A stretch of 63,965 nt of DNA, taken from a virus. Shown here piece by piece: positions 9,344 through 63,698 of this stretch. Under the pieces are notes generated by a model, which made no database searches, was not told where the DNA came from, and saw only the letters and a list, made by a program, of their open reading frames with translations. The translations under genes were made by a program, and so were the position numbers. Location: the UHGV virus genome UHGV-0122909, one strand, 5' to 3'. The number at the start of each line of letters is the position of its first letter. Positions within the stretch are counted from its first letter, which is position 1.

Positions 9344-10183
9344 ATGAAGAATGGTTTTTATGCGACTTACCGCAGCAAAAATAAAGGGAAAGATAAGCGC
9401 TCAATAAACCTGTCTGTTTTCCTTAATTCTCTGCTGGCTGATAATCATCACCTGCAGGTTGGCTCCAATTATTTGTATATTCATAAAATCGATGGAAAAA
9501 CTTTTCTCTTTACCAAAACAAATGACAAGAGTCTGGTTCAGAAGATAAATCGCTCTAAAGCTTCAGTTGAAGATATTAAGAACAGCCTCGCAGATGACGA
9601 ATCATTGGGATTCCCATCTTTTTTGTTTGTTGAAGGCGACACCATTGGTTTTGCCAGAACTGTTTTCGGGCCGACCACATCCGATCTGACAGATTTTTTA
9701 ATCGGGAAAGGAATGTCATTAAGCAGTGGAGAGCGCGTTCAGATAGAGCCACTGATGAGGGGAACCACCAAAGACGATGTTATGCATATGCATTTCATCG
9801 GCCGAACAACGGTGAAGGTAGAAGCCAAGCTACCTGTATTTGGCGATATATTAAAGGTCTTAGGGGCAACAGATATTGAAGGGGAGCTTTTTGACTCATT
9901 GGATATAGTCATTAAGCCAAAATTTAAAAGGGATATAAAAAAGGTTGCCAAGGATATTATTTTTAACCCGTCACCTCAATTTTCAGACATTAGCCTGCGG
10001 GCAAAAGATGAGGCCGGAGATATTTTAACAGAACATTATCTATCAGAAAAAGGCCATCTCTCAGCGCCTCTGAACAAGGTCACCAATGCTGAGATAGCTG
10101 AAGAGATGGCATATTGCTACGCAAGAATGAAAAGTGATATACTGGAATGTTTTAAAAGGCAGGTGGGCAAAGTTAAGGATTAA
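9344..10183 (+). CDS. rexA: RexA exclusion protein
   Basis: 279 aa recognised as lambda RexA, immediately downstream of cI. Confidence 0.9.
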   Translation: MKNGFYATYRSKNKGKDKRSINLSVFLNSLLADNHHLQVGSNYLYIHKIDGKTFLFTKTNDKSLVQKINRSKASVEDIKNSLADDESLGFPSFLFVEGDTIGFARTVFGPTTSDLTDFLIGKGMSLSSGERVQIEPLMRGTTKDDVMHMHFIGRTTVKVEAKLPVFGDILKVLGATDIEGELFDSLDIVIKPKFKRDIKKVAKDIIFNPSPQFSDISLRAKDEAGDILTEHYLSEKGHLSAPLNKVTNAEIAEEMAYCYARMKSDILECFKRQVGKVKD

Positions 10184-33776: not shown

Positions 33777-35081
33777 ATGAGCGAGTATATAGAAATTGCC
33801 TATGCAGCGGCTACACATAGGCTGTGCTTTCTTACAGGCACTGGATTTTCAAAGGCTGTTTCTGATGATAAAGCCCCAAGTTGGCAATCTTTATTGGAGC
33901 AACTGTGCGGTTTATTGAAGGATGGTGACTCACTCAAAGAGGAATTATTTCCTGATGGAAAAGCAAAAGACCTTAGCCTTGAAGAAGCTGCTCAGGTTAT
34001 TGCACTAAAACTTATACTTTCGGGGAAAAATATTTACCAAGAGATTGAGAAAATCATAGCCTCAATCGAACTTGATCCATCAATTGAATATATTCAAGAC
34101 TTTTTCAAAGAAAACACATTTAAAGTAATTACGACAAATTATGACAAGTTAGCAGAAAAGCTGGCTGGAGAGAATCGAACTTGTACAATCACCCCCGGCC
34201 TGCCAATTCCAAAATATAATTGTGAGGTTAAAGTCTACCATGTTCACGGTTCTATAGACTCCCCATCAGACATGGTTGTTACTAGCGAGGATTATTTCAG
34301 ATTTATAAATGGTAATTCTTACTTTTCTAATAAACTAAGCACAGTTCTACATGAAAACACTATTGTTATCCTTGGCTATTCTCTAAGTGACGCGAACCTA
34401 AAGGCTATTATAAATGAATATAAGGTATTTTCACGGGACAACGTAATGTCCTCCAATATTTTCCTTGTTTCCCGAGGGGAACTATTGCAACCTATTAAAG
34501 ATTACTATTTTTCCTGCTATGGGGTTAGGGTTATAGATAAAACAGAGGTATCTGATTTCTTTAGAAAACTTAACGATAAAATTCCAGAAGCAAAAAAAAT
34601 AAAAGACAAATTGAGGCACTCAATCAAATCGGTAATAAAAAACGGAAGAGAGTATAAAATAGAGTTCTTGAAGCTAGAGGATTCTTTTTATCATATCATT
34701 TCCTCCATTTCATCATCTGGATATAGCTGGAATAATGAAAATGTATTAAATGTTTTTTGTAATATAATAGATAAAAAAATAGAGCTTACTAAAAAGCCTG
34801 GCGCATGGGAGCAGTATGAACACCTGGCAAAATGGCTTATTTATTTCGGTAGTTTATTTGAAGTAAAAGGAACCAATTTTGAGAAAAAATACATACATGC
34901 GGTTGAACACTCAATGACTTATATGAATAAACCTTACGAAACAGGCTACTCATGGCGAGCATATCTAGCCTGGAAAACAAAATGGCCTTCACTGACAGCA
35001 TCTAACCGCTCTCTTATTAAGAATGAGATGGAAGATATCCCGCTACAACAGATTCACGATATTGTATCTAAGTTTATATAG
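33777..35081 (+). CDS. SIR2-family (SIR2_2-type) protein, candidate NAD+-depleting defense effector
   Basis: 434 aa. N-terminal SIR2 motifs in canonical order: FLTGTGFSKA (GxG loop), VITTNYDKLAE (catalytic Asn), VYHVHGSI (catalytic His), ILGYSLSD. C-terminal ~200 aa helical region of unknown type. Visibly AT-rich. Occupies the res/mod position of P1. Confidence 0.8.
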   Translation: MSEYIEIAYAAATHRLCFLTGTGFSKAVSDDKAPSWQSLLEQLCGLLKDGDSLKEELFPDGKAKDLSLEEAAQVIALKLILSGKNIYQEIEKIIASIELDPSIEYIQDFFKENTFKVITTNYDKLAEKLAGENRTCTITPGLPIPKYNCEVKVYHVHGSIDSPSDMVVTSEDYFRFINGNSYFSNKLSTVLHENTIVILGYSLSDANLKAIINEYKVFSRDNVMSSNIFLVSRGELLQPIKDYYFSCYGVRVIDKTEVSDFFRKLNDKIPEAKKIKDKLRHSIKSVIKNGREYKIEFLKLEDSFYHIISSISSSGYSWNNENVLNVFCNIIDKKIELTKKPGAWEQYEHLAKWLIYFGSLFEVKGTNFEKKYIHAVEHSMTYMNKPYETGYSWRAYLAWKTKWPSLTASNRSLIKNEMEDIPLQQIHDIVSKFI

Positions 35082-46423: not shown

Positions 46424-46912
46424 GTGGCACAACGCGGTGTAAACAAAGTCATCCTGATTGGTACCCTGGGGCAAGACCCGGAGATCAGGTATATACCAAA
46501 TGGCGGCGCGGTCGGAAGACTCAGCATCGCAACGAATGAATCATGGCGCGACAAGCAAACGGGCCAACAGAAAGAGCAAACAGAATGGCATAAAGTCGTT
46601 TTGTTCGGAAAACTTGCTGAAATTGCGAGTGAGTATTTACGAAAAGGTTCTCAGGTCTACATCGAAGGGAAACTTAAAACCCGTAAGTGGACAGATGACG
46701 CCGGTGTAGAACGTTACACGACGGAAATTATCGTCAGCCAGGGCGGCACCATGCAAATGATCGGCGCTCGCCGTGACGATTCACAGTCCTCAAATGGCTG
46801 GGGGCAATCAAACCAACCTCAAAACCACCAGCAATACAGCGGTGGCGGTAAACCTCAGAGCAACGCCAATAACGAACCTCCAATGGACTTTGACGACGAT
46901 ATTCCGTTTTAG
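46424..46912 (+). CDS. ssb: Single-stranded DNA-binding protein
   Basis: 162 aa, GTG start, OB-fold N-terminus and acidic tail DFDDDIPF. Paralogous to the SSB in the lambdoid module. Confidence 0.95.
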
Positions 46913-46953
46913 AGTTAACTTGTGAGTTATTTGTAAAGAATCCATACGCAGGC

Positions 46954-46977
46954 CCCTGTTAATTCAGGGGTTTTTTG
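46954..46977 (+). terminator. Rho-independent terminator after ssb
   Basis: CCCCTGttaattcAGGGG followed by TTTTTTG. Confidence 0.65.
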
Positions 46978-47049
46978 TTTCTATCGTCGGAAAAAGTGTC
47001 TTGTATAAATTGGTGATTTTTCACATAAAGTGTACCTTGTAATTGTGTA

Positions 47050-48318: not shown

Positions 48319-49843
48319 CCTCTTACTTGGGTTAGTACCAGAACGAATCCGTGCCAGGGCCAATGGCTACTCTTTTCTGTTGTATGACACATCGTGGACA
48401 TTGGATAGAAATATCACTATTAATCTTGCTGATATTCACCATTACTTGTCAGATGGGACGCTAGATGGCTGCCTGCGTACACTGGCGTTTTATGCATCCA
48501 ATCGTTCTTCTTCTCATACAAAAAATATTCTTGAACGGTTTCAGCACATGCTGCGTGAGACTGACGCGAGAGAAATTACTGATACGGTATTGATTAATTA
48601 TCGGTCGATGCTGTCGCCTGCAACAGAATGGTATCTAGCAACCATCCGTGGCTTTCTTCGATCCTGGCACGAACTGGGCTATCCCGGCATCAGTAAGGAG
48701 GTGAACCGCTTGCTAGATGGCTGGACGCTAAAGGGTAATCGTAAGGGGGATGCGGTTAAGCGCATGGATCCTCAAGAGGGGCCACTGACGGATAATGAGC
48801 TGACAGCGTTTAACGAGGGGGCTGTTCGGGCTTATGAAAAGAGCTTAATTACTATAGCTGAGTTGGCTATAGCACTTGGCACCAGTCATACAGGACGTCG
48901 TCCCATTCAGATCTCGCTGCTTCGTGTGGTCGATGTCCTTTGTGGTAAAAATGGAAAGGGAGAGCCCTTCTATGTGTTGAATGTGCCGCGAGCCAAGCAG
49001 CGCAGCAGCTCTTTCCGAATAAACTTCAAACCATTTGCAATATCACTGGAACTATGGGCAATCCTGAGTGCTCAGGCAAGAAATGCGATTGCGCAGGTTG
49101 AAAATCGTTTGGGGTTTGAATTGCAGGAAGATGACCGGCAGCAAATCCCTCTTTTTCCTGATCTTGATGTGTTAGATGCCGTCCAATCTCCTTATGAATT
49201 CCGCCAACTGCATGCTACCGACAAACTCCACATTCCCGCCGCAGAGATAACCGACACCCTCCAATACATCGTAGAAAAGTCCGACATCCGGTCGGAACGT
49301 ACCGGTGAGCTATTACATATCAATGCTCGTCGTTTTCGTTATACCACAGGCACACGAGCTGCCCGGGAAGGCTTTGGCGAGCTGGTGATTGCGGAACTGC
49401 TTGACCACGCGGACACCCAAAACGCAGGCGTTTACATCAAGAATATCCCCGAGCATGTGAAAAAGCTTGATGAGGCGGTTGGCTTCCAATTAGCACCATA
49501 CGCTCAGGCCTTTGTCGGGGCACTTGTCGATTCAGAGAGAGACGCGCATCGAGGTAACGACCCTACCAGTCGTATTCGGACCGAAATGGGTCAGGGTGTT
49601 GGTACTTGTGGAGAACATGGCTTTTGTGGTGCCAATGTTCCTATTCCTTGCTACACCTGCATGCATTTCCAGCCTTGGCTGGACGGCCCACATGAAGATG
49701 TCTATCAAGGACTGCTCAACGAACGTGAACGGGTGAAAGAGATAACTGGCGACATCCAGATTGCTGCCGTACTTGATCGCAGTATTATCGCGCTGGCAGA
49801 TGTGATCATGCGTTGTGCAAAACGTCGTGAAGAGCTTAGTTAA
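48305..49843 (+). CDS. Tyrosine recombinase B
   Basis: Probable start MTMNNLLLG at 48305 overlapping the upstream stop. C-terminal RRFRYTTGTRAAREG...LLDHAD...GVYIKN is recombinase-like. Confidence 0.65.
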   Translation: MTMNNLLLGLVPERIRARANGYSFLLYDTSWTLDRNITINLADIHHYLSDGTLDGCLRTLAFYASNRSSSHTKNILERFQHMLRETDAREITDTVLINYRSMLSPATEWYLATIRGFLRSWHELGYPGISKEVNRLLDGWTLKGNRKGDAVKRMDPQEGPLTDNELTAFNEGAVRAYEKSLITIAELAIALGTSHTGRRPIQISLLRVVDVLCGKNGKGEPFYVLNVPRAKQRSSSFRINFKPFAISLELWAILSAQARNAIAQVENRLGFELQEDDRQQIPLFPDLDVLDAVQSPYEFRQLHATDKLHIPAAEITDTLQYIVEKSDIRSERTGELLHINARRFRYTTGTRAAREGFGELVIAELLDHADTQNAGVYIKNIPEHVKKLDEAVGFQLAPYAQAFVGALVDSERDAHRGNDPTSRIRTEMGQGVGTCGEHGFCGANVPIPCYTCMHFQPWLDGPHEDVYQGLLNERERVKEITGDIQIAAVLDRSIIALADVIMRCAKRREELS

Positions 49844-49859
49844 CAGGGAGCAATAACCA

Positions 49860-51893
49860 ATGGCTGAGATTTTCCTGTTTAAGCCAAAGGCTACGCTGAC
49901 AGCAGCAGAAAACCTTGAAGCATTCATATCCCAGTGCCGAGATCAATTGACTGTATTCGGCTCTGATCTCACTTGGGAAGATCCTGTTTGGCCAAACATA
50001 ACTGTATTTGCCAAGTTGGGCATTATTACGAGAAAACCCATACTGGAAGAGACGCAAGACCCTGCTTTCATTGATTTTGCCAAAGCCTATTTCCGTTACC
50101 AGCAGGGGCATAGCCTCTCTAGGGCAAAGAATGAAAGTAAAGCCCTCCGTGCGGTTGAGGCGGCTTTGCTTCAAGTAAATGGAAACGCAAATATTGATGG
50201 CCTGTCGATTTCTGTGCTGGATGAAGCAGCTGAATTGGCAAAGCATTACTACTCCGATGGCTCCGCATATCATTGTGGCCGTGAGATTGAGCGGCTGGCT
50301 AAGTTTGTAGCTGAAAACCAGCTTGTATCAAGTGCTGTACAAAATTGGGTCAATCCAATTAAACGTGCAGAGGATAAGAACAAAACGAGCAGAAAGGCGA
50401 AGAAAAATAGGGAAGATAAACTTCCGAGTGATATTGCTCTTAATGCGTTGGCGGAAATTTTTGCCAACGACCCAATTCATGAGCGAGACATATTTACAAC
50501 ATCGGTTTTTGCCATGTTGATGTCGGCACCTTCACGTATTACTGAGGTGTTAGCACTGCCTGTGGATTGCGAGGTTTTTGAAACGGATCGTGAAGGGATA
50601 GAACGATATGGTTGGCGTTTTTTTGCGGGGAAAGGCTATGAGGGTGATATCAAATGGATACCCACCGTGATGGTCGGTATAGCTAAGACAGCCGTAGCTA
50701 GAGCTAGAGTGCTCTCTGAAAATGCACGACAACTGGCCAAGTGGATCGAGAAACACCCGAATAAGTTTTACCGCCATGCTAACTGTCCCAGTGTAGCCGA
50801 TGATGAGCCATTGACGATGAAGCAGGTTTGTATGGCGCTCGGTTTTGCACATTACTCTAAAAAGACGTGCAGGTCGTGTCTTGGTAATCGAGGTTTAGCT
50901 AAAGAGGATGGTGTACATACTCTAAATAGCCTGTGGCAGCACACAATGGCGCGTTTACCGGATGACTTTCCGTGGTTTGATAAAGACAAGGGAATTAGGT
51001 ACAGCAATGCCTTGTTTGTACTGAACGTAAATCAGTTCCACGGGAACAGAGGATGCATACCAGTTGAGTTACATAAGCCAACCAATAATTTCTTCAACAG
51101 TGATCTGACGCCTCGTCTGTCCTTGAAAGGAAAACATGCCAGTATCTTTGATCGCCATGGTTACCATGCTGTAAACGGAGAGCCGGTGAAATTAACCTCA
51201 CATCAGGCTCGACACCTGCTCAACACCATTATCCAGCGCGGTGGCCTGTCAAACTTGGAAATTGCCAAGTGGTCGGGGCGGGCAGATGTGAAACAGAATC
51301 GAACTTACAACCACATGACTGAATACGAACTGGTTGGCATTGCTGAACGCCTTGATCCCACAACAGCGCTATTTGGGCCTGCTGGCGAGGTGGCAAAGCA
51401 TCTGCCCGTGACTATGCAGGAGTTCAATACCTTAGAGCATGCCGCAGTCCATGTGACGGAGTATGGCTACTGTGTGCATGATTACACCATGAGTCCTTGT
51501 GAGAAATTCCGAGATTGCGTCAATTGTACCGAACAGGTTTGCATCAAAGGCGATGATGCTGAAAAGTTGGATCGCATTAAGATACGTCTGGAGAAATTAG
51601 AGCGACTGTTTTTTCTTGCTGACGCAGCAGTGGAAAGTGGTGAGATAGGAACTGATCGCTGGTATCAGTACCACAAGAAAACTGTTACCCGGCTTCGTGA
51701 ACTAGTGGCTATTTTAGAGAATCCAGACATTGAAAATGGTGTCCAGATTAAGCTCCGGGGCAATGATTTCAGCCAGCTTCGCCGTGTTGTCGCAAAGACG
51801 TCTATTGTGGCCATCGAGCAAAAAGGCAAAGAAAGTGAAGAAGCTGTGATGTTAGATGATTTGACAACTTTGTTAGGAGGTGGCCTTGGCTAA
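49860..51893 (+). CDS. Tyrosine recombinase C
   Basis: 677 aa with LTSHQARHLLNT (His-x-x-Arg-His) and NRTYNHMT (Tyr). Confidence 0.7.
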   Translation: MAEIFLFKPKATLTAAENLEAFISQCRDQLTVFGSDLTWEDPVWPNITVFAKLGIITRKPILEETQDPAFIDFAKAYFRYQQGHSLSRAKNESKALRAVEAALLQVNGNANIDGLSISVLDEAAELAKHYYSDGSAYHCGREIERLAKFVAENQLVSSAVQNWVNPIKRAEDKNKTSRKAKKNREDKLPSDIALNALAEIFANDPIHERDIFTTSVFAMLMSAPSRITEVLALPVDCEVFETDREGIERYGWRFFAGKGYEGDIKWIPTVMVGIAKTAVARARVLSENARQLAKWIEKHPNKFYRHANCPSVADDEPLTMKQVCMALGFAHYSKKTCRSCLGNRGLAKEDGVHTLNSLWQHTMARLPDDFPWFDKDKGIRYSNALFVLNVNQFHGNRGCIPVELHKPTNNFFNSDLTPRLSLKGKHASIFDRHGYHAVNGEPVKLTSHQARHLLNTIIQRGGLSNLEIAKWSGRADVKQNRTYNHMTEYELVGIAERLDPTTALFGPAGEVAKHLPVTMQEFNTLEHAAVHVTEYGYCVHDYTMSPCEKFRDCVNCTEQVCIKGDDAEKLDRIKIRLEKLERLFFLADAAVESGEIGTDRWYQYHKKTVTRLRELVAILENPDIENGVQIKLRGNDFSQLRRVVAKTSIVAIEQKGKESEEAVMLDDLTTLLGGGLG

Positions 51894-52305
51894 GCATCTG
51901 GACAATAGAGACATTAATGCCATCGTAAATCTAATTCGAGGATGGAAGGAACCAAAACTGTCCTGGTCAGCAATTTGTGAGGCGGCAGAACCATTGGTCG
52001 GAAAGTTGCCGTCAAGACAGTCCCTTAATGCACATGAGGCAATAGTGACTGCCTATCAAACAAAGAAAGAGGCGCTTAAAGGCCGTGGCCCCAAAAATCC
52101 GCGTCCAGCTAGTTTGAACATTGCAGCCGCGAGGATTGTGAATCTTGAAAGCGAAATCGAAGAGCTTAAGGAAGAGAACCGGAGGTACAAACAACAGTTT
52201 GTGATCTGGCAATACAATGCATACAAATATGGAATGACAGAACATCAACTTAATGCGCAGCTGACAAAGATTGACCGTGAGCGCTCTGATGGAGAAAGAA
52301 GATAG
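51880..52305 (+). CDS. Small coiled-coil accessory protein (TnpC-like position)
   Basis: 141 aa overlapping the recombinase C stop by 14 nt. C-terminal coiled coil LESEIEELKEENRRYKQQF. Confidence 0.4.
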   Translation: MALAKHLDNRDINAIVNLIRGWKEPKLSWSAICEAAEPLVGKLPSRQSLNAHEAIVTAYQTKKEALKGRGPKNPRPASLNIAAARIVNLESEIEELKEENRRYKQQFVIWQYNAYKYGMTEHQLNAQLTKIDRERSDGERR

Positions 52306-52380
52306 TTGCTGAGTACGATATCGAGGGTACATTTCTCTGTGTAGGGGTAGTTATTTACAAAAAAATAGGAGAATAATTAA

Positions 52381-55300
52381 ATGGTCAAACCAAACTGGGA
52401 TAACTTTAAAGCTAAATTTAGTGAGAATCCTCAAGGTAATTTTGAGTGGTTTTGCTACTTGTTGTTCTGTCAAGAATTCAAAATGCCCGCAGGTATATTT
52501 AGATATAAGAATCAATCTGGTATCGAAACTAATCCAATAACCAAAGATAATGAAATTATCGGTTGGCAATCTAAATTCTATGACACAAAATTGTCGGATA
52601 ACAAAGCTGATCTTATAGAAATGATTGAGAAAAGCAAAAAGGCTTATCCAGGATTAAGTAAAATCATTTTCTATACTAATCAAGAGTGGGGGCAGGGGAG
52701 AAAGTCCCATGAACCTGAAGGCGATAAGAACGCTGATAATTATTTGGAAACTGTCGGAAATAGTAACGATCCCAAAATAAAAATTGAAGTTGATCAGAAA
52801 GCATATGAGTCGGGTATCGAAATAGTATGGAGAGTTGCTAGTTTTTTTGAATCACCGTTTGTAATAGTTGAGAATGAAAAGATTGCTAAACATTTCTTCT
52901 CCCTTAATGAAAGCATCTTTGATTTATTAGAAGAAAAGCGCAAGCACACAGAAAATGTTTTATATGAAATTCAAACCAATATAGAGTTCAAAGACAGAAG
53001 TATTGAAATTGACAGACGACATTGTATAGAACTTCTACATGAGAATCTAGTTCAGAAAAAAATTGTCATCGTCAGCGGAGAAGGTGGGGTTGGAAAAACA
53101 GCAGTTATCAAAAAAATTTATGAAGCAGAAAAACAATACACTCCTTTCTATGTCTTTAAGGCTAGCGAGTTTAAAAAGGACAGTATTAATGAGCTATTCG
53201 GTGCGCATGGCTTAGACGATTTCTCTAATGCTCATCAAGACGAATTACGTAAAGTCATAGTCGTAGATTCTGCTGAAAAGCTTTTAGAACTGACCAATAT
53301 CGATCCTTTTAAAGAATTCCTGACTGTTTTAATAAAGGATAAATGGCAGGTTGTTTTCACAACCCGTAACAACTACTTGGCAGATCTGAACTATGCTTTC
53401 ATAGATATTTATAATATAACTCCTGAAAACTTAGTAATAAAGAACCTTGAACGCGGCGAGCTAATAGAGTTATCTGATAACAATGGATTTAGCCTTCCTC
53501 AAGATGTTCGATTATTAGAACTAATCAAAAATCCATTTTATCTAAGTGAATATTTGAGGTTCTATACCGGTGAAAGCATCGATTATGTGAGCTTCAAAGA
53601 AAAGCTTTGGAATAAGATTATTGTCAAAAATAAACCTTCTCGGGAGCAGTGTTTCTTAGCGACTGCTTTTCAGCGGGCTAGTGAGGGCCAATTTTTTGTC
53701 TCCCCGGCATGTGATACTGGAATTTTAGATGAGTTAGTTAAAGACGGAATTGTCGGCTATGAAGCTGCTGGTTACTTCATTACACATGATATATACGAGG
53801 AATGGGCATTAGAAAAGAAAATTTCTGTCGATTATATCCGTAAAGCGAACAATAACGAGTTCTTCGAAAAAATAGGAGAATCACTTCCTGTTCGCCGTAG
53901 TTTTCGGAATTGGATATCTGAACGATTGCTTTTAGATGACCAGTCCATAAAGCCTTTTATCGCAGAAATAGTCTGTGGAGAAGGAATATCAAATTTTTGG
54001 AAAGACGAGTTATGGGTAGCTGTCCTTCTTTCCGATAATTCAAGCATATTTTTTAATTACTTTAAAAGATATTTACTTAGTAGTGACCAGAATCTATTAA
54101 AAAGACTTACTTTCTTATTGAGGCTTGCTTGCAAGGACGTTGATTACGATCTGCTTAAACAGTTAGGTGTAAGTAATTCAGATCTGCTTTCCATTAAATA
54201 TGTTCTTACTAAGCCTAAGGGAACTGGTTGGCAGAGTGTGATCCAATTTATCTATGAAAATTTAGATGAAATAGGGATCAGAAATATTAATTTTATACTT
54301 CCTGTGATTCAGGAGTGGAATCAAAGAAACAAAGTGGGTGAAACGACTCGATTATCTAGTTTGATAGCCCTAAAATATTATCAATGGACTGTAGATGAGG
54401 ATGTCTATTTATCCGGAAGGGATAATGAGAAAAATATTCTGCATACGATTCTTCATGGGGCGGCCATGATTAAACCTGAAATGGAAGAGGTTTTAGTTAA
54501 GGTTCTTAAAAATAGGTGGAACGAGCACGGTACCCCATATTTCGACCTTATGACCTTAATCCTTACTGACTTAGATTCATATCCGGTTTGGGCATCTCTC
54601 CCGGAATATGTTCTACAATTGGCAGATCTGTTCTGGTATCGGCCACTTAAAGAAACAGGCGAACGTTATCACAGTATGGATATTGAAGATGAGTTCGGTC
54701 TATTTAGGTCTCATCACGACTATTATCCAGAAAGTCCATATCAGACTCCTATATATTGGTTACTACAATCACAGTTCAAAAAAACAATAGACTTTATTCT
54801 TGATTTTACGAACAAGACAACGATATGTTTTGCCCACTCCCATTTTGCTAAAAACGAAATTGAAGAAGTCGATGTCTTTATTGAAGAAGGAAAGTTTATA
54901 AAGCAATATATATGCAATCGTCTGTGGTGCTCATATCGAGGAACACAGGTCTCTACCTACTTACTTTCATCAATTCATATGGCATTGGAAAAATTTTTTC
55001 TTGAGAATTTTAAAAATGCAGACTCGAAAGTGTTGGAAAGTTGGCTTCTTTTCTTGTTAAGAAATACCAAGTCAGCTTCTATTTCTGCAGTAGTTACGAG
55101 TATTGTACTTGCATTCCCTGAGAAGACATTCAATGTAGCTAAAGTACTATTCCAAACAAAGGATTTCTTCCGTTTTGATATGAATCGAATGGTTCTAGAC
55201 AGAACACATAAAAGTTCATTAATCTCCCTCAGGGATGGCTTTGGCGGTACAGATTACAGAAACTCTTTGCACGAAGAAGATAGAATTAAAGCTTGCGATG

Positions 55301-57144
55301 ATGTGCATAGAAATACTTATCTTGAAAATCTTGCCTTGCATTATCAAATTTTCAGGAGTGAAAATGTAACGGAGAAAGATGTCATTGAAAGGCAACAAGT
55401 GCTCTGGGGTATTTTCGACAAATACTATAATCAGCTTCCAGATGAAGCTCAAGAAACTGAAGCCGATAAGACGTGGAGGCTCTGCTTGGCAAGAATGGAT
55501 CGGCGAAAGATGAAAATAACTACCAAGGAGAAAGATGAAGGGATTGAGATATCATTCAATCCTGAGATTGACCCTAAACTAAAGCAATATAGTGAGGAAG
55601 CAATAAAGAAAAACTCCGAGCATATGAAGTATGTAACGCTGAAACTATGGGCAAGCTATAAAAGAGAAAAGGATGAACGTTATAAGAATTATGGAATGTA
55701 TGAGGACAATCCGCAAATTGCTTTACAAGAGACCAAAGAAATAATAAAAAAGCTTAATGAGGAAGGGGGTGAAGATTTCAGACTATTAAATGGTAATATA
55801 CCAGCAGACGTTTGTTCTGTATTACTGTTAGATTACTTTAATCAGTTGAATAATGAAGAGAGAGAATATTGTAAAGATATTGTTCTAGCATATTCTCAAC
55901 TTCCGTTGAAGGAAGGCTATAATTATCAGGTACAAGATGGGACAACCTCGGCAATTTCAGCCTTACCCGTGATTTATCATAATTATCCAATGGAAAGGGA
56001 GACTATAAAAACAATATTACTTTTGACACTGTTTAATGACCACTCTATTGGAATGGCAGGTGGGCGCTACTCAGTATTTCCTAGTATGGTGATTCATAAA
56101 TTATGGCTAGACTATTTTGATGATATGCAGTCTCTATTGTTTGGTTTTTTGATTTTAAAGCCAAAGTATGTAATTCTTTCAAGAAAAATCATTCATGAAA
56201 GTTATCGTCAAGTAGACTATGACATTAAAAAAATAAATATTAATAAGGTGTTTTTAAATAACTATAAGCATTGCATATCAAATGTCATCGATAATAAAAT
56301 ATCTATAGATGATTTGGGAAGTATAGATATAGTTGATCTACATATTTTGAACACAGCTTTCCAATTAATTCCAGTTGATACTGTTAATATTGAACATAAG
56401 CAATTGGTTTCCTTAATTGTTAAAAGATTTTCTACAAGCCTATTGTCAAGTGTTCGAGAAGATAGAGTTGATTACGCTCTTCGGCAGTCTTTCTTGGAAA
56501 GATTTGCCTACTTTACGCTTCATGCGCCCGTGAGCGATATTCCCGATTATATAAAACCTTTTCTTGATGGTTTCAACGGTTCAGAGCCTATTTCAGAGTT
56601 ATTTAAAAAATTTATTCTCGTCGAAGATAGATTAAATACTTACGCCAAATTTTGGAAGGTTTGGGATTTGTTTTTTGATAAAGTGGTTACTTTGTGCAAG
56701 GATGGAGATAGGTATTGGTATGTAGATAAAATTATAAAAAGTTACCTTTTTGCTGAATCTCCATGGAAAGAAAACTCTAATGGTTGGCACACATTTAAAG
56801 ATAGCAATAGTCAATTCTTTTGCGATGTATCTAGGACTATGGGCCATTGCCCTTCAACTTTATATTCTCTTGCCAAATCTTTGAATAACATTGCCAGTTG
56901 CTATCTTAATCAAGGTATAACCTGGCTTTCAGAAATGTTGTCGGTTAATAAAAAGCTATGGGAAAAGAAATTGGAAAATGATACTGTTTATTTTTTAGAA
57001 TGTTTGGTTAGGCGGTATATTAACACTGAGCGTGAGCGAATTAGACGAACCAAACAGTTGAAAGAAGAGGTCTTAGTAATATTGGATTTTTTGGTAGAGA
57101 AAGGATCTGTTGTTGGTTATATGTCACGGGAAAATATTCTGTGA
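52381..57144 (+). CDS. Large STAND-type P-loop NTPase with N-terminal nuclease-like domain and ~1300-aa helical C-terminus (Avs-like)
   Basis: 1587 aa. Walker A IVIVSGEGGVGKTAV, Walker B KVIVVDSAEKL, then VVFTTRNNY (the hhhTTR STAND/NB-ARC signature). N-terminal ~220 aa contains ...DNEIIGWQSKFY..., a possible PD-(D/E)xK-like core. Strongly AT-rich. Confidence 0.7.
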   Translation: MVKPNWDNFKAKFSENPQGNFEWFCYLLFCQEFKMPAGIFRYKNQSGIETNPITKDNEIIGWQSKFYDTKLSDNKADLIEMIEKSKKAYPGLSKIIFYTNQEWGQGRKSHEPEGDKNADNYLETVGNSNDPKIKIEVDQKAYESGIEIVWRVASFFESPFVIVENEKIAKHFFSLNESIFDLLEEKRKHTENVLYEIQTNIEFKDRSIEIDRRHCIELLHENLVQKKIVIVSGEGGVGKTAVIKKIYEAEKQYTPFYVFKASEFKKDSINELFGAHGLDDFSNAHQDELRKVIVVDSAEKLLELTNIDPFKEFLTVLIKDKWQVVFTTRNNYLADLNYAFIDIYNITPENLVIKNLERGELIELSDNNGFSLPQDVRLLELIKNPFYLSEYLRFYTGESIDYVSFKEKLWNKIIVKNKPSREQCFLATAFQRASEGQFFVSPACDTGILDELVKDGIVGYEAAGYFITHDIYEEWALEKKISVDYIRKANNNEFFEKIGESLPVRRSFRNWISERLLLDDQSIKPFIAEIVCGEGISNFWKDELWVAVLLSDNSSIFFNYFKRYLLSSDQNLLKRLTFLLRLACKDVDYDLLKQLGVSNSDLLSIKYVLTKPKGTGWQSVIQFIYENLDEIGIRNINFILPVIQEWNQRNKVGETTRLSSLIALKYYQWTVDEDVYLSGRDNEKNILHTILHGAAMIKPEMEEVLVKVLKNRWNEHGTPYFDLMTLILTDLDSYPVWASLPEYVLQLADLFWYRPLKETGERYHSMDIEDEFGLFRSHHDYYPESPYQTPIYWLLQSQFKKTIDFILDFTNKTTICFAHSHFAKNEIEEVDVFIEEGKFIKQYICNRLWCSYRGTQVSTYLLSSIHMALEKFFLENFKNADSKVLESWLLFLLRNTKSASISAVVTSIVLAFPEKTFNVAKVLFQTKDFFRFDMNRMVLDRTHKSSLISLRDGFGGTDYRNSLHEEDRIKACDDVHRNTYLENLALHYQIFRSENVTEKDVIERQQVLWGIFDKYYNQLPDEAQETEADKTWRLCLARMDRRKMKITTKEKDEGIEISFNPEIDPKLKQYSEEAIKKNSEHMKYVTLKLWASYKREKDERYKNYGMYEDNPQIALQETKEIIKKLNEEGGEDFRLLNGNIPADVCSVLLLDYFNQLNNEEREYCKDIVLAYSQLPLKEGYNYQVQDGTTSAISALPVIYHNYPMERETIKTILLLTLFNDHSIGMAGGRYSVFPSMVIHKLWLDYFDDMQSLLFGFLILKPKYVILSRKIIHESYRQVDYDIKKININKVFLNNYKHCISNVIDNKISIDDLGSIDIVDLHILNTAFQLIPVDTVNIEHKQLVSLIVKRFSTSLLSSVREDRVDYALRQSFLERFAYFTLHAPVSDIPDYIKPFLDGFNGSEPISELFKKFILVEDRLNTYAKFWKVWDLFFDKVVTLCKDGDRYWYVDKIIKSYLFAESPWKENSNGWHTFKDSNSQFFCDVSRTMGHCPSTLYSLAKSLNNIASCYLNQGITWLSEMLSVNKKLWEKKLENDTVYFLECLVRRYINTERERIRRTKQLKEEVLVILDFLVEKGSVVGYMSRENIL

Positions 57145-57187
57145 TGTAGTTGAAAATAATAATTTTAATGAGAGCTTTTCCAATTTA

Positions 57188-57212
57188 GGCTCCAGGGATT
57201 GGAGCCTTTTTA
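57188..57212 (+). terminator. Rho-independent terminator after the NTPase gene
   Basis: GGCTCCAgggatTGGAGCC followed by TTTTTATT. Confidence 0.65.
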
Positions 57213-57239
57213 TTATCGAAAAGATTAATATCTTATAAG

Positions 57240-57458
57240 TCAATCAGTAAAACGCAGCAAAGCTCGTTGCTCTTGAATGTTCACTCCGTGATAAATTCTT
57301 TGATTACCACATAAATAACAAGAACAAGCACAAGGGGTGCAGTAAATTTTCCCTACAACTTTTTCAGTTTTAGCCAACGCAATTCGATATGTTTTTCTCT
57401 TAGATTTTAACCGAGATATATGATGACGACGCCATGCCCGATTTCTAACCATTTCCAT
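57240..57458 (-). CDS. Small basic Cys-cluster protein (hypothetical)
   Basis: 72 aa with an Arg/Lys-rich N-terminus and CTPCACSCYLCGN cluster. Confidence 0.3.
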   Translation of the reverse strand: MEMVRNRAWRRHHISRLKSKRKTYRIALAKTEKVVGKIYCTPCACSCYLCGNQRIYHGVNIQEQRALLRFTD

Positions 57459-57682
57459 TCACTCCAATTTTCTACCGCGGTGTTATACCGCGCCCGTATC
57501 AATCTTTGGAGTTCGATATCGATCTGACCTTTCATGAATACCTCGGAATTTATCAATAAAGTGAGTGCTATATCATAGCTTATGGGATGAAAGTTTGATA
57601 TTTAGCACTTTTCAGCTTTAGGTAAAGCTGTCCTCAATAAAGCTAATTTCTTGTTTATTAATGGAATTTCTATGTAGAAGTG

Positions 57683-58504
57683 TTAGAAATCCTGTTTTAC
57701 TTTATCCATCGTTAAAACTTTACTTATTATATAAGGATCATAATTTCTTATACTCATAAGGCAATTTATCAAATTGGAAACGTGGCTATCATCAGGAATA
57801 AGTATATATTTAATATCATCGAAAGAAAAACCAATGCCAAATTCAGAGAATTTTTTACTTAAGACGGCCTTCTGGTTAGGTTCCACCACTCGCTCTAAAT
57901 TTAGGCTAGGCCATAAATCGCCAACAAACGGATGCGGTACATATCTCCATTCTTTTTCGTCAGCGTAGATATAATTCTCAATGGTTTTTTCGTTCGTCCT
58001 TTCTAATTTCCCTTTATAATTTTTCATATAGCGTAATAAATTATAAAGGTCAGCGTACTCTTCTTTAAGGCTTTCAAAATACTTACGCTCTTTATTATCA
58101 AGGATATGCCTTTTCGACCATAGCGGAATTAACGCATCCTTTAGTTTTCTAATTCTTTTATTATACTTTGAAAATAATTCACTGCCTTGATTCATGTATA
58201 GAACGGGATGGAGATCATTTTTCTCAGCCCATTCTTTTGTTAACCCAAATCCAAATTCACCATATTTTCCACTATGATCTTTAATCTGAGAAAGCTTGAT
58301 GTCACAGAATGAAACCATTGGTACTGCGAAATTTCTTCTTCCTTTTACTCCGACTATGCGTTCACGGGCAAGAAATGGTTTAAAATAGAGTTCTGTTAAA
58401 ATGCTATAGAATGCCTCTTCATTTTTAGTAAAGTGAAACAACGTTGTTGGATGTAAACTATTAACTGCTTGTATAACTGTTTCTTGGTTTTCTATAGCAC
58501 TCAT
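57683..58504 (-). CDS. Hypothetical AT-rich protein, possibly abortive-infection-like
   Basis: 273 aa, convergent with the NTPase, strongly AT-rich. N-terminal TLFHFTK resembles some Abi-family proteins, but this is unverified. Confidence 0.4.
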   Translation of the reverse strand: MSAIENQETVIQAVNSLHPTTLFHFTKNEEAFYSILTELYFKPFLARERIVGVKGRRNFAVPMVSFCDIKLSQIKDHSGKYGEFGFGLTKEWAEKNDLHPVLYMNQGSELFSKYNKRIRKLKDALIPLWSKRHILDNKERKYFESLKEEYADLYNLLRYMKNYKGKLERTNEKTIENYIYADEKEWRYVPHPFVGDLWPSLNLERVVEPNQKAVLSKKFSEFGIGFSFDDIKYILIPDDSHVSNLINCLMSIRNYDPYIISKVLTMDKVKQDF

Positions 58505-58910
58505 ATATTAACTGTTCCATAGTGTAAAACCTGACTTAGCAAAGGTTATCATACTAGTCTTTGTACTGTAAGCACACTTGGTTTAATTCCACGCACTTTT
58601 TGAGATTTCCGGTTTTTTGATCTCTTACCAAAATCTATGCCAGATTGAATCAAAGGTCCGAGCTGGGTCACCAAAAAAAGTAAAATTATGCACTTTGATA
58701 GATTATATTTTAACTAAATTCTTTACAGTTAAATCATTTCTTATGCCTTAGTTTCTGATAAAAAAGGTTTTTTTTCACGATTTATAAGTATCAGGTTATG
58801 TGAACCGTTCTAACGAATAGCCCCCCCCGAGATATTGCTTTCGCTGGTGGGAAAACATTCCTGACCCACCTGAAGGCGCAATACATCAGGTTTTAAGCAG
58901 AGGAAAGACT

Positions 58911-59588
58911 ATGAATAACATGACAACGAAAGAGCTTTTGACGGCACTTCCAAAATACAAAAGCCATAAAACAGTTCGCGCCTCAAAAATCAAAGATATC
59001 GAAATTATCGCCCTAATGGATGTGGTCCTTTTTTGCAACATCGAAGTCGTTGAGCCAGAAGGGGTAAAAGTCCATGTTGATAAAATATTTTTGCAAAAAC
59101 ACCGACCAGAAATTGGCGGATATCTGGTCGCTTATGAGGACGGATCTCTGTCCTATTCACCAGAAAAAACATTTGAAGAAGGCTTTAGTCGGACTAACGA
59201 CTTCTTCGAAAATGGGGTATCGCTCAGCATTGAAGGTCACAATGGGGTGACATTCATTACAGCCAGGGACGTAACTATTTCTGCTGGCGGTATCGCTACT
59301 CTACAAGAAGAAATCGACCTTGAAGCAGCCGACTTTTCTGACGCGCTGATGTGGCTGAAGGATGGCAAGAAAGTTGCCCGACGCGGGTGGAACGGCGAAA
59401 ACCAATTCTGCTGGCTGGTTCCTGAAGGACAGTACCCGGCACGAATGGAAGCCATTAAGGGATATTTCCCCGGCGACCTCGTTCCGTATGGTGCTTATTT
59501 CGCCTTAAAAAATGCACAAGGTGTAGTTGTTCCGTGGGTTCCTTCTGTAGGCGACTTACTGGCATGTGACTGGTTTGTAGTGGAGTGA
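58911..59588 (+). CDS. Hypothetical protein with DUF2829-like (Tad2-like) C-terminal domain
   Basis: 225 aa. C-terminal ~80 aa LMWLKDGKKVARRGWNG...PWVPSVGDLLACDWFVV fits my recollection of DUF2829 (GW...PW.PS..DLLA.DW). Confidence 0.4.
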   Translation: MNNMTTKELLTALPKYKSHKTVRASKIKDIEIIALMDVVLFCNIEVVEPEGVKVHVDKIFLQKHRPEIGGYLVAYEDGSLSYSPEKTFEEGFSRTNDFFENGVSLSIEGHNGVTFITARDVTISAGGIATLQEEIDLEAADFSDALMWLKDGKKVARRGWNGENQFCWLVPEGQYPARMEAIKGYFPGDLVPYGAYFALKNAQGVVVPWVPSVGDLLACDWFVVE

Positions 59589-60412: not shown

Positions 60413-60721
60413 TCAATATACGATCTGGTCTACATGATCACCAAAATCATCGTCGTCGTCCTCATCGCCACCATCTACTGCTGGCCAATCAACAAACCAG
60501 CCAGCGTAAAGATGCAGCGTTCGGAGAACATCACTTGCGGGGGCATCAAGGGTGTTAACGAATCCCATATAGCTATTGGGATTTGCTCCAGCTATGGCTT
60601 CAGCGATCATGTCCTCGGTAATGTCACCGGAGATAATGCTTAAACGCCCGGAAACTTCTTCATTATCATCAAATTCGATAATGGCATCTCCACCTAATGG
60701 CGCTGCGATTTTAATCTGCAT
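60413..60721 (-). CDS. Small acidic protein (iddB position)
   Basis: 102 aa with a very acidic C-terminus (GGDEDDDDDFGDH), overlapping the upstream 995-aa gene stop. Confidence 0.4.
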   Translation of the reverse strand: MQIKIAAPLGGDAIIEFDDNEEVSGRLSIISGDITEDMIAEAIAGANPNSYMGFVNTLDAPASDVLRTLHLYAGWFVDWPAVDGGDEDDDDDFGDHVDQIVY

Positions 60722-63698
60722 TATTTAGCTCCTTTGCCACACCTAATAACAGTTCCAGCAATCCGTCACCATTCATCAGTGATGCGGCAGCGGCCTCTTT
60801 GTCATGATACAACTGAAGAGCCATAGAGAATACTTCCGTTGCTGACGTTTTGGAAATAGTCGGTGATTTCTGCCGAATTTTCCCGGTGTTACTTACTGAG
60901 GCTGGCGGGTATACCTTCGCCATATAAATATTACTCAATCGAGATCTGAAGCACCATTCAGGCTTGCCACGCCCACCGATATTGACGAAAGATGGCTTAT
61001 CCCCTTCAACATTGGCCTTCAGGAATGACCGGGCTTTCTCTAACAAACCAGGGTTACTGTACTCAAGATGATGACCCAGCTCGTGCCACAGTGCACTTGC
61101 ATTTTCATCGTTCAAATTGACAGCAACAACACCATTAAGATTTGCATATGCCCTTCCCTGGTGGTGAACTACCTTTGATAAGGTCGATATTTTCCCGCCG
61201 GTCAGGCGATAAATATCAGCAAGTTCCTTGCGCAGGTCTATCCCACCATTCTGTCCAGCGCGGACTTCTTCCACTTCTTCTGTGATAAAAGAGTCGGCCC
61301 ACTCAAGAGCTTTTTCTTCAGATACGGATGAGTTTGCGATCGCACTGTTCATGGCAGATAACACTTTCTCGTGGACCGAACCCATACTTCGCTGATTCAT
61401 TTGCCAGCGTGTCTGCGGGTTATATGAGAATCGCTTAAGTAGTTGGTCAAGATGCTCAAGTTCTTCTTCACTGACATACTTTTTAGCCTCACCAATAATG
61501 CCAGGGAGAATATTGCCGTTAGGATTAAACGCTCGCGAAAGGAAGAGTTTCAGCGCCCCCATGCCCTCCGATGCTTCAATATCACCAATAACCCGGTTAA
61601 CAATGGCCGCACTCTTCGGATTAGCATCCGCCAACGCTCTGGCTACAATTTGCAGGGACGATACGACCTCACGCTGCATATCCGTCCTGATCTCATCAAT
61701 AAACTCTGGCGTTATGCCGTGCTCTTTAAGGATATCCCTGCCTTCCGCCGTTACCCCATCGATATCACCGACATGTTTATTAACCCGACTTTGCAATGCC
61801 TTAAATGCCTTCAGAATTCCACGGGCATCATCCGCTTTACCAACGGCCTTCCTGAATGCTGGCAAGAAGTCTGAGTTAACCTCATTTTGTTGATCGGCCC
61901 ACTGAATGGAGGCTTCTTTCATCTCGTCCAGAGTCAGATCACCCAACGCGGTATGGTCTGTGAATATGAGCGACAACCTCTGAACCATTTCTGCCAATGG
62001 TGATGCCGAATGCGCCGCGCTAAGGAATGCTTTCACCCTGGTTGGGCGAATGGAAAACCAGTCAATAGCTGGTGGCATATCTCCGTTTTTTATCGCCTGC
62101 GCTATCTCGTCAAAGCCATCGCGCCCAAGGGAGGATGCGTGATTTAACAAGCCGCGAAGTAACGAATTGCTGATACCGAATAATCGGCACCATTTTTTCA
62201 CGTCGGCAACAGGCATTCGAACAAAATGCGCAAGCACTTGTACAAGCTGTTCATCCTGGGGATCTGTGCGGGAAAGCAGCCTGATCAGATGAATAATGTC
62301 TTTGATGCCGGATGCCCGATGTAATAGCAAACTGGTATACGGAGCAACACCGTTGTAACTACCGCCGGAAACGGACTCGAAAAGACCGCCGGATATCCCT
62401 TGCATGCCTTCGTTTTCCAGTTCCTGAGACACCTGGCGAAGGATATCCTGTAACGACACATCGCCGCCGCCAAACATATCCCCCAGCGCCTGGCCCTGGT
62501 GCTGTAACTCATCATTGATACGTTGAGCCATCAACTTAAAGGCGGTGGCCATACGCTTCGCGCTACGGTTATTCGCGACGATGAACAACGCGAGTGCTTT
62601 CACTTCCGGGGCCGTTTCGCTGAACATATCCCCCTGAGCAATAACATCGGTAATATGCTGGCCTGACTCCTTCGATTGCCTTACCAGGTCTACCGCATCT
62701 TTCAATGCCGCCAGCGCCTTTTTATCGAGGCTATCCGCTGTCTCAATGCCATCAACAATAGTTGTCACAGCCTGCTTGTGCGCTTCTCCTGATAAAGCCT
62801 GCATCTGGACAAAATCATTGGCTGCCGCATTAAGCGCCGTCAGAACATTACGCATATCCGGATCAGGTTCTTCTGCAACCATCCTTACCAGGCGCGCATC
62901 CTTATATGCCTTGGCAAAGATCGCGTTTTGTATACGGTCTACAAGTTGCCGTGTTGGTCGCCCATCTTCAGTTACAAGGCCAGCCGCCTGTGTGGCACCA
63001 ACTTGCGTCATAAATCCGCGAATAAACGCGTCATTACTGCGGCTAAGCAGATCTCCGCTTTCTGACGGGTTAAAAAGCGCCATCATCGCCGGTGTTATGC
63101 TGTCGGCATCAACAAAAGCTTTTTCACTGGCTGCCATTTCCTGAAGATCAGAAATATTTGAGTCCTTGGCAAACTGAACGCGGTCAACCTTAGTTAACCG
63201 GCGGCGCACCAGTACCGGAGCCGTCATTGATTCAACCTTTTCAGGAGGTATGCCGAATTCGGTCGCATGTTCAATCAGGTACTCACGATACCGATCCGCA
63301 TTGCCGTCCTGATAGGCTTTGATGATCCCCATGGTCCGTCCATTACCTGACTCAACGGCATTGTCCTCACCAATTATCGGCGCGCCATGGCTGGATAAAC
63401 CGGAATCAGTAAGCTGAGCAGGCCGCAAATCTTTGGATATCTGGTTAACCTGAAGAAGGCTGGATGCGCGGGTCCGGTCGCGCGGTTGAAGTTCCTGGGG
63501 ATAGTCAGGATTAATTTTCCCATCCAGAGTATTGGATACCAAAAGAGCTGAGGCATCGACGATATCAAACGCTGTTTTTACCTCGTCTCCCTTCGCTGTC
63601 ACCACATACGAAACCCGCCCATAATCGGGCAGGTTCTTTAGCAGCTCGATCAGCGTTTCTATGCTGGTGGCCATTACCACCTGATCGCTTAAGCTCAT
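60711..63698 (-). CDS. ddrB: DdrB-like large protein with HExxH metalloprotease-like motif
   Basis: 995 aa with ALWHELGHHLEYSNPG. Size and position fit P1 ddrB. Symbol is tentative. Confidence 0.5.
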   Translation of the reverse strand: MSLSDQVVMATSIETLIELLKNLPDYGRVSYVVTAKGDEVKTAFDIVDASALLVSNTLDGKINPDYPQELQPRDRTRASSLLQVNQISKDLRPAQLTDSGLSSHGAPIIGEDNAVESGNGRTMGIIKAYQDGNADRYREYLIEHATEFGIPPEKVESMTAPVLVRRRLTKVDRVQFAKDSNISDLQEMAASEKAFVDADSITPAMMALFNPSESGDLLSRSNDAFIRGFMTQVGATQAAGLVTEDGRPTRQLVDRIQNAIFAKAYKDARLVRMVAEEPDPDMRNVLTALNAAANDFVQMQALSGEAHKQAVTTIVDGIETADSLDKKALAALKDAVDLVRQSKESGQHITDVIAQGDMFSETAPEVKALALFIVANNRSAKRMATAFKLMAQRINDELQHQGQALGDMFGGGDVSLQDILRQVSQELENEGMQGISGGLFESVSGGSYNGVAPYTSLLLHRASGIKDIIHLIRLLSRTDPQDEQLVQVLAHFVRMPVADVKKWCRLFGISNSLLRGLLNHASSLGRDGFDEIAQAIKNGDMPPAIDWFSIRPTRVKAFLSAAHSASPLAEMVQRLSLIFTDHTALGDLTLDEMKEASIQWADQQNEVNSDFLPAFRKAVGKADDARGILKAFKALQSRVNKHVGDIDGVTAEGRDILKEHGITPEFIDEIRTDMQREVVSSLQIVARALADANPKSAAIVNRVIGDIEASEGMGALKLFLSRAFNPNGNILPGIIGEAKKYVSEEELEHLDQLLKRFSYNPQTRWQMNQRSMGSVHEKVLSAMNSAIANSSVSEEKALEWADSFITEEVEEVRAGQNGGIDLRKELADIYRLTGGKISTLSKVVHHQGRAYANLNGVVAVNLNDENASALWHELGHHLEYSNPGLLEKARSFLKANVEGDKPSFVNIGGRGKPEWCFRSRLSNIYMAKVYPPASVSNTGKIRQKSPTISKTSATEVFSMALQLYHDKEAAAASLMNGDGLLELLLGVAKELNNAD

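Follow-up and report, generated by a model that had tools for sequence, protein, structure and literature searches.

The 63,965-nucleotide genome UHGV-0122909 (hereafter "the window", meaning this entire stretch of DNA) is a P1-like phage-plasmid in which two open reading frames (ORFs) on the minus strand converge on a large NTPase gene on the plus strand. We found that both ORFs are genuine genes and that they reside with the NTPase, identified as Avs4, on one island of the GInt (Tn6571) type inserted in the stop codon of an ssb gene. The explanation we favor, and consider probable, is that the two ORFs are independent accessory genes that together with Avs4 form the cargo of this ssb-targeting island, one encoding a solo AbiGi effector of the ADP-ribosyltransferase (ART) type and the other constituting a small nucleic-acid-binding module. 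Each of the other explanations we considered is less well supported than this one. The identities and family assignments of the genes, the structure and junctions of the island, and the absence of a conserved linkage are demonstrated, whereas the enzymatic activity of AbiGi, its trigger and target, its antiphage role, and the role of the small protein are inferred.

The larger ORF encodes 273 amino acids (57683..58504, minus strand), the smaller has 72 codons (57240..57458, minus strand), and the NTPase gene encodes 1587 amino acids (52381..57144, plus strand). The convergence noted in the original prediction, which was made from the sequence without database searches, was therefore borne out, as was the assertion that the two ORFs are as AT-rich as the NTPase gene. 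Specifically, the G+C contents are 33.1% for the larger ORF, 37.4% for the smaller, and 34.9% for the NTPase gene, versus approximately 48% for the flanking backbone and 45 to 49% for the gin genes of the island. Neither is a chance ORF, because the large one matches models from Pfam, PADLOC, and PHROG, and the small one matches phrog_4499.

A solo AbiGi protein with a predicted ADP-ribosyltransferase fold

The N-terminal TLFHFTK sequence of the 273-amino acid protein (residues 21–27) had been thought reminiscent of abortive-infection proteins, and this hunch proved right. The protein matches the Pfam family AbiGi (PF10899; E value 1e-24, 88 bits, cutoff 22.4), the PADLOC AbiGi model (E value 1.6e-44, covering model positions 17–260 of 260), and phrog_13416 (E value 3e-98). 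It is identical to RefSeq entry WP_001272932.1, which already carries the name "abortive infection system antitoxin AbiGi family protein." We aligned the protein with its relatives, yielding a set of 68 diverse family members, all of which match PF10899. With the NCBIfam model for the lactococcal AbiGI equivalog (NF042957), the window protein scored 45.2 bits against a cutoff of 300, and we classify it by sequence as a member of the AbiGi family and not as the lactococcal AbiGI equivalog. A relation to DUF2971 (PF11185), which the original prediction had proposed to check, was found only as distant kinship: the window protein itself has no match at an E value of 1 or less, whereas weak matches occur in 13 of the 68 family members. 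The protein is thus an AbiGi member and not a DUF2971 member.

The namesake system, lactococcal AbiG, is encoded by plasmid pCI750 and comprises AbiGi and AbiGii. It has in common with the window gene the PF10899 domain, carriage on a mobile element, and an association with abortive infection. It differs in that the window protein falls far below the equivalog cutoff, is encoded without AbiGii, and occurs in a Gram-negative host. The trigger of lactococcal AbiG is a major tail protein, and its mode of action is obscure. Between the AbiGi and Avs4 genes of the window there is nothing larger than ORFs of 42 and 72 codons, neither of which matches a PADLOC model. Likewise, the PADLOC models for AbiGii matched none of the proteins scanned, which included the other window ORFs of at least 150 amino acids.

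Several residues are strikingly conserved among the 68 aligned relatives. Residues E48, E183, and E185 are invariant, and H24, T26, R47, and S65 are nearly so. An AlphaFold2 model computed from this alignment has a predicted local distance difference test (pLDDT) score of 91.6 and a predicted template modeling (pTM) score of 0.86, and it places the conserved residues, in the expected order, on the first strand, on the next hairpin, and on the strand that follows a helical insert. This placement fits the H/R–S–ExE arrangement, and we regard an ART fold as probable, though not proven, for AbiGi. The predicted fold is closest to those of the nucleic-acid-modifying enzymes DarT and Tpt1. A survey of Legionella ART proteins lists PF10899 among the known ART-like families and describes DUF2971 as similar to AbiGi and DarT. 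Nevertheless, the resemblance to DarT, the single-stranded DNA thymidine ADP-ribosyltransferase of the DarTG toxin–antitoxin and defense system, is remote in sequence (10–13% identity), no DarG macrodomain antitoxin is encoded adjacent to AbiGi, and published classifications assign AbiGi to the R-S-E clade and DarT to the H-Y-E clade.

If this assignment is correct, AbiGi would act as a single-gene effector of the abortive-infection type that lacks an AbiGii partner and retains H24, R47, S65, and E183-x-E185. The enzyme, presumably triggered by infection, is predicted to use NAD+ to ADP-ribosylate a target, which is probably a nucleic acid because of the resemblance to DarT and Tpt1. In this manner, AbiGi would add a second, independent layer of antiphage defense beside Avs4. 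Among the metagenomic relatives, one protein of 411 amino acids (P0087) has an N-terminal HNH nuclease fused to an AbiGi domain whose motifs are intact.

A small Cys-rich protein and its upstream ORF

The 72-codon ORF, remarked upon in the original prediction for its basic character and for the Cys cluster CTPCACSCYLCGN (residues 40–52), is also a real gene, as indicated by a match to phrog_4499 (E value 5.7e-16), by its pattern of substitution, and by the size of its family. Translation most likely begins at the second ATG (position 57452), since Enterobacter lacks the first ATG and a conserved GGAG ribosome-binding site precedes the second. We therefore refer to a 70-amino acid protein, encoded by 57240..57452 (minus strand). 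Its relatives number 257 clusters in a word-indexed search and 1,943 representatives in an exhaustive search, 520 of them with E values of 1e-10 or better, and include ORF053/T5.055 of phage T5. Family members have a basic N-terminus followed by the core TPCxCSCxxCG, both of which are present in the 70-amino acid protein; in the alignments C41, C43, and C45 are near-invariant and C48 is invariant. The phage versions are longer (93–104 amino acids) and carry an extension at the C terminus; in the annotated phage records that we examined, no gene occupies the position of the upstream ORF described below. A cluster look-up for distant relatives returned no informative names.

The small gene is under purifying selection against diverged copies, with ratios of nonsynonymous to synonymous substitution rates (dN/dS) of 0.45 versus a variant on the E. 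coli chromosome and 0.22 versus Enterobacter. This pattern contrasts with that observed at closer range in one Pantoea locus (L009), where 8 nonsynonymous changes and 1 synonymous change have accumulated and one Cys is lost, although these counts are small.

Absent from the original prediction is a second, conserved ORF of 42 codons (57407..57535, minus strand) that precedes the 70-amino acid gene and overlaps it by 46 nucleotides in every enterobacterial copy examined, including those of Pantoea, E. coli, Enterobacter, and Serratia. Its first codon varies among ATG, GTG, and TTG but is always a start codon, and its length and overlap are fixed. It is accompanied by a conserved GAGG box and contains a GC-rich hairpin (57476–57492). 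A −10-like box lies upstream (57567–57575), with the sequence TATAAT in the copies from the E. coli chromosome and from Enterobacter. The dN/dS values for this ORF are 0.65 to 0.86 with a low synonymous rate (dS), and consequently the constraint is not clearly on the encoded protein. Judging from these sequence features, the ORF has the appearance of a translated leader and not of a gene whose protein product is selected. An Rfam scan of positions 56900–59000 yielded no RNA family. In the RefSeq records examined, neither member of this gene pair is annotated.

The hairpin at 57187..57207, between the convergent Avs4 and 70-amino acid genes, is the sole terminator-like site predicted within 57050–58920, and a 41-nucleotide stretch overlapping this hairpin has a conserved counterpart next to the small genes in Enterobacter. 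AbiGi, the leader ORF, and the 70-amino acid gene are codirectional. A promoter-like site for AbiGi is located at 58685–58713, and the small genes are preceded by a −10-like box and ribosome-binding sites of their own.

Together, the leader and small gene make up a module of approximately 320 bp that recurs in several genomic settings. It is convergent with Avs4 in the window, in Pantoea, and in E. coli; with a gene for an 802-amino acid AAA_13 ATPase at the same yjcB-proximal site in Enterobacter; and, near ssb in Serratia, with a pair of reverse-transcriptase genes. In Salmonella islands it lies beside Dnd genes or SNF2/AAA/S8 genes, and in Vibrio it occurs within integron-like cassette arrays. 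Family members are also encoded by Erwinia jumbo phages and by T5-like phages, in the latter within the tRNA/early region. Because many of these settings include neither AbiGi nor Avs4, the module is independent of both. We propose that the protein, with its basic residues and four-Cys knuckle, may be a small zinc-binding and nucleic-acid-binding accessory protein or regulator, that it would be translated behind the 42-codon leader and controlled translationally through it, and that the gene is probably carried as a self-contained module.

Genes of the 70-amino acid protein family were observed near genes for ART-fold proteins in three settings: AbiGi in the window, an RNA 2′-phosphotransferase gene two genes upstream in Erwinia phage Ea35-70 (L082, 1294–2710), and, in Enterobacter, a gene for an FRG-domain protein at a distance of one gene (L013, 10862–12187). 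Such proximity may be due to chance, and we did not adopt a link between the two families because it was seen in just 3 of approximately 8 contexts. The notion that the small gene marks the extreme end of GInt islands was ruled out, since AbiGi or a helicase gene lies beyond it.

Insertion of a GInt island in the stop codon of ssb

The island spans approximately 46911–58811 (11.9 kb) and has the architecture published for GInts (PMC5385486), in which the operon ginABCD is followed by cargo immediately after ginD and by a short AT-rich 3′ end. All four genes of this ginABCD-like operon are on the plus strand: ginA (47071–48318, 415 amino acids; Phage_integrase E value 2e-15), ginB (48305–49843, 512 amino acids; weak Phage_integrase match), ginC (49860–51893, 677 amino acids; no Phage_integrase match), and ginD (51880–52305, 141 amino acids). 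This pattern of Phage_integrase matches agrees with what has been published for GInts. RefSeq names these genes integrases. The cargo (52306–58504; 34.6% G+C) begins directly after ginD, and the AT-rich cargo region with Avs4, AbiGi, and the small gene amounts to 6.5 kb. It is followed by the AT-rich end (58505..58811; 31.6% G+C). The literature documents that GInts carry defense systems in E. coli and that they are detected in 7.5% of Escherichia replicons.

Homology to phages P1 and SJ46, which represent the empty site, stops at position 46910, inside the ssb stop codon, and resumes at 58813. The left attachment site (attL, 46904..46912, plus strand) reads CCGTTTT-AG, such that the island starts within the stop codon, and the AT-rich end finishes with CCGTTCT (58805–58811), the attR core. 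The right end was defined by comparison with plasmids p20-20P1 and pETN48. In p20-20P1, the P1 sequence normally located downstream of ssb resumes directly after CCGTTCT; the island thus lies between two imperfect repeats, CCGTTTT and CCGTTCT. In the window, the nine bases AACGAATAG (58812..58820), the first six of which match the IncF flank in pETN48, stand in for approximately 100 bp of P1 sequence present in p20-20P1. A search for repeats at the island ends revealed nothing besides the short att cores.

Three mutually unrelated ssb genes serve as targets, each at its stop codon. In addition to the P1-type gene, these are the IncF ssb gene of pETN48 and the chromosomal ssb1 gene of E. coli strain 20-20, in which the island is located between uvrA-ssb1 and yjcB; the junctions at both are of the same type as in the window. 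The original claim that the two ORFs and the NTPase arrived together is therefore supported, because all three belong to one island that is essentially identical after three different ssb genes. Strain 20-20 has a second copy of the island on a P1-like plasmid, and strain KBN10P04869 likewise carries the island both in its chromosome and on a P1-like plasmid, which suggests recent movement within the cell.

The island resembles published GInts in its gene order, overlapping gin genes, position of the cargo, AT-rich 3′ end, and imperfect repeats. It differs in its target, which is the 3′ end of ssb genes rather than the ABC-transporter gene targeted by the Pseudomonas founders, and in its small size. 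Note that this comparison is one of architecture. A 52-nucleotide stretch within the AT-rich end (58565–58616) is 90% identical to a sequence beside an IS3 fragment in Enterobacter loci L013–L016 (approximately 5659–5710), where its orientation relative to the small gene is opposite. It is probably the remnant of an insertion-sequence end.

Linkage of AbiGi to Avs4 is not conserved

EcAvs4 is a model bacterial NLR-like immune sensor. The window NTPase scored 2361.8 bits against the PADLOC Avs4 model and 2067 bits against NCBIfam NF041815 (cutoff 1500), and it matches chain A of Protein Data Bank (PDB) entry 8DGF over all 1587 residues with 3625 bits. This near-maximal, full-length match identifies the NTPase as EcAvs4. 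In published work, Avs4 recognizes phage portal proteins and activates its own N-terminal nuclease as a tetramer, with no partner mentioned. Avs4 is thus a self-sufficient sensor–effector, and AbiGi and the small gene are not part of it.

We then considered how often these genes occur together. The cassette is found, nearly always complete, in 360 of 5,426 complete E. coli genomes, where it is chromosomal at 356 of 381 places and at least 99% identical in 362 of 375 records. It is found additionally in 32 plasmids, and it is present in Pantoea vagans, Kalamiella, and E. ruysiae, whose AbiGi proteins are 97 to 99% identical to that of the window. AbiGi adjoins Avs4 in 358 of the 360 E. coli genomes. 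However, the cassette copies are all at least 96% identical, and they therefore represent one element lineage and one evolutionary event rather than independent evidence of linkage.

A survey using one genome per species yielded 60 AbiGi loci, and Avs4 is absent from 58 of these. No neighbor family recurs among the loci: no cluster of neighbors exceeds 4 proteins, and no Pfam or PADLOC family accounts for more than 3 of 150 neighboring proteins. The neighbors are often defense genes, including those for type I restriction–modification, TIR, GmrSD, PD-Lambda-3, and PDC-S35. AbiGi relatives with 65 to 70% identity are variable genes of SSU5-like phage-plasmids, and a cluster of Cap4-nuclease/AAA_23 genes adjoins the relatives with 59% identity, which reside in an Enterobacter island. 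In turn, an E. coli Avs4 with 89% identity is accompanied by the small gene but has a gene for an 824-amino acid DEAD/ResIII helicase in place of AbiGi. An accessory gene of Avs4 would be expected to remain linked across diverged homologs, whereas AbiGi is linked only among copies that are at least 96% identical. The functional tie to the NTPase implied by the original prediction is accordingly not supported. That prediction had named the lack of co-occurrence in other genomes as evidence that would speak against it, and, as regards a functional link, this is largely what we found.

Some of the surveyed AbiGi genes are followed by gaps that lack annotated genes. We looked there for a conserved element, but the gap in locus L004 proved to contain tRNA genes, and no homologs of the small ORFs were found at the loci with such gaps.

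Alternative explanations

Several observations weigh against the explanation we favor. Foldseek comparisons of the AbiGi model with the PDB and BFVD gave nothing significant, a search of PDB sequences with a profile of the AbiGi alignment found nothing, and a 2026 review describes lactococcal AbiGi as having no structural matches. Moreover, lactococcal AbiGi acts together with AbiGii, and Dy et al. reported that AbiGi and AbiGii are both non-toxic in E. coli (and that AbiE genes are widely mislabeled as AbiG); a solo enzyme may thus be inactive or need a further partner. Because no terminator is predicted after AbiGi, transcription could read through into the small genes, and their co-transcription and a local functional link with AbiGi are possible. 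Finally, the AlphaFold2 model of the 70-amino acid protein is poor (pLDDT 62.5), which makes the role we propose for this protein a guess.

It is quite unlikely, in our estimation, that AbiGi has no catalytic activity and is instead the orphaned regulator or "antitoxin" of a former AbiGi/AbiGii pair, inactive on its own. The family label used by RefSeq and Pfam, the two-component nature of lactococcal AbiG, and the absence of an ART match by Foldseek would all agree with such a protein. However, the "antitoxin" label is given by analogy only, and Dy et al. found no toxin–antitoxin behavior for AbiG. Furthermore, the residues presumed to be catalytic vary little or not at all among the 68 diverse members, which argues for an enzyme, and a conserved AbiGii partner would appear as a recurrent neighbor family, of which there is none in the surveyed solo subfamily. 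Similarly doubtful is a toxin–antitoxin or addiction pair in which AbiGi is the ART toxin and the downstream small genes help stabilize the island or plasmid. The genes are codirectional and no predicted terminator separates them, ARTs resembling DarT are usually toxins, all three genes are conserved together in Pantoea, and RefSeq words the AbiGi family in toxin–antitoxin terms. Yet the module lies beside AbiGi in only 2 of the 60 loci, both of them this same cassette, and it also occurs without AbiGi beside other genes and in lytic T5-like phages; in addition, the module brings a −10 box and ribosome-binding sites of its own, and lactococcal AbiGi is non-toxic in E. coli. The earlier suggestion that the two ORFs are defense or addiction components of the same island consequently stands with respect to their common island, but we found no evidence for an addiction role.

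Very improbable is an arrangement in which AbiGi, with or without the 70-amino acid protein, serves as an accessory subunit of Avs4, either as a second effector or as a regulator activated by Avs4. Although the genes are adjacent in every cassette copy (the E. coli genomes, plasmids, Pantoea, Kalamiella, and E. ruysiae listed above) and are similarly low in G+C content, the near identity of these copies reduces them to a single event, and the genes are convergent with a terminator between them. This arrangement is also difficult to reconcile with the 89%-identical Avs4 that has a helicase in place of AbiGi, with the 58 other AbiGi loci that lack Avs4, and with the literature on Avs4, whose structure is solved (8DGF) and which has its own nuclease. 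We likewise judge it unlikely that the two genes are morons of phage origin whose function is to serve mobile elements, for example in host takeover, anti-defense, or superinfection exclusion, rather than host immunity. AbiGi does match phrog_13416 and has relatives in SSU5-like phage-plasmids, the 70-amino acid protein family is present in T5-like and jumbo phages, and the window is itself a P1-like phage-plasmid with a Tad2-like gene. Against this, the E. coli cassette is mostly chromosomal and is carried on a GInt rather than on a phage, a tblastn search with AbiGi found no match in 50,697 records of sequenced phages, and the neighbors of AbiGi family genes are often defense genes. A bolder reading, to which we assign a small chance, combines two proposals: solo AbiGi would be a DarT-like nucleic-acid ADP-ribosyltransferase without an antitoxin, and the 70-amino acid protein with its leader ORF would be the island copy of a T5-type early protein that modulates or guards the cargo. 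The small gene may then have been retained beside a cargo that is swapped among Avs4, the AAA_13 ATPase, the twin reverse transcriptases, and Dnd. If true, the 70-amino acid protein would establish a new class of small accessory proteins common to phages and defense islands.

Other genes of the phage-plasmid

Outside the island, four other genes of the window were noted. Beside the right end is a gene (58911..59588, plus strand) for a DUF2829/Tad2-like domain protein (Pfam PF11195, E value 1.6e-22), of a family named for anti-Thoeris activity. This gene occupies the isaA position of P1, and the insertion of the island removed approximately 100 bp just upstream of it relative to p20-20P1. A 434-amino acid protein (33777..35078, plus strand) is encoded in a sharply AT-rich kilobase (33.9% G+C, 34001–35000) and matches SIR2-type defense models, specifically PDC-S25 (E value 6e-24), the SIR2 region of ThsA (E value 9e-18), and LmuA. 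By these matches, it is probably another defense gene on the phage-plasmid. A full-length RexA homolog (9344..10180, plus strand; PADLOC E value 9e-110) lies in a backbone stretch of lower G+C content, and a 995-amino acid protein (60711..63698, minus strand) carries a DdrB-like ParB domain (Pfam PF18763, E value 1.8e-39) and corresponds to the defense-against-restriction region of P1.

Significance

Part of what we describe is already known, in that the AbiGi gene is an annotated member of a known family and resides in a known type of island. Modestly new are the partner-less AbiGi subfamily with a predicted ART-like fold, the widespread small gene pair, and the ssb stop codon as a target common to chromosomal, IncF, and P1-like replicons. 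The native locus of EcAvs4 can now be described as a GInt that targets the stop codon of ssb genes and has become distributed among chromosomes, IncF plasmids, and P1-like phage-plasmids. Phages and islands share the family of the small gene pair, which has nearly 2,000 cluster representatives, and in the RefSeq records that we examined the pair lacks annotation. For AbiGi, whose mechanism has been obscure since the 1990s, our findings suggest a testable hypothesis, namely that the protein may act as a stand-alone enzyme of the ADP-ribosyltransferase type.

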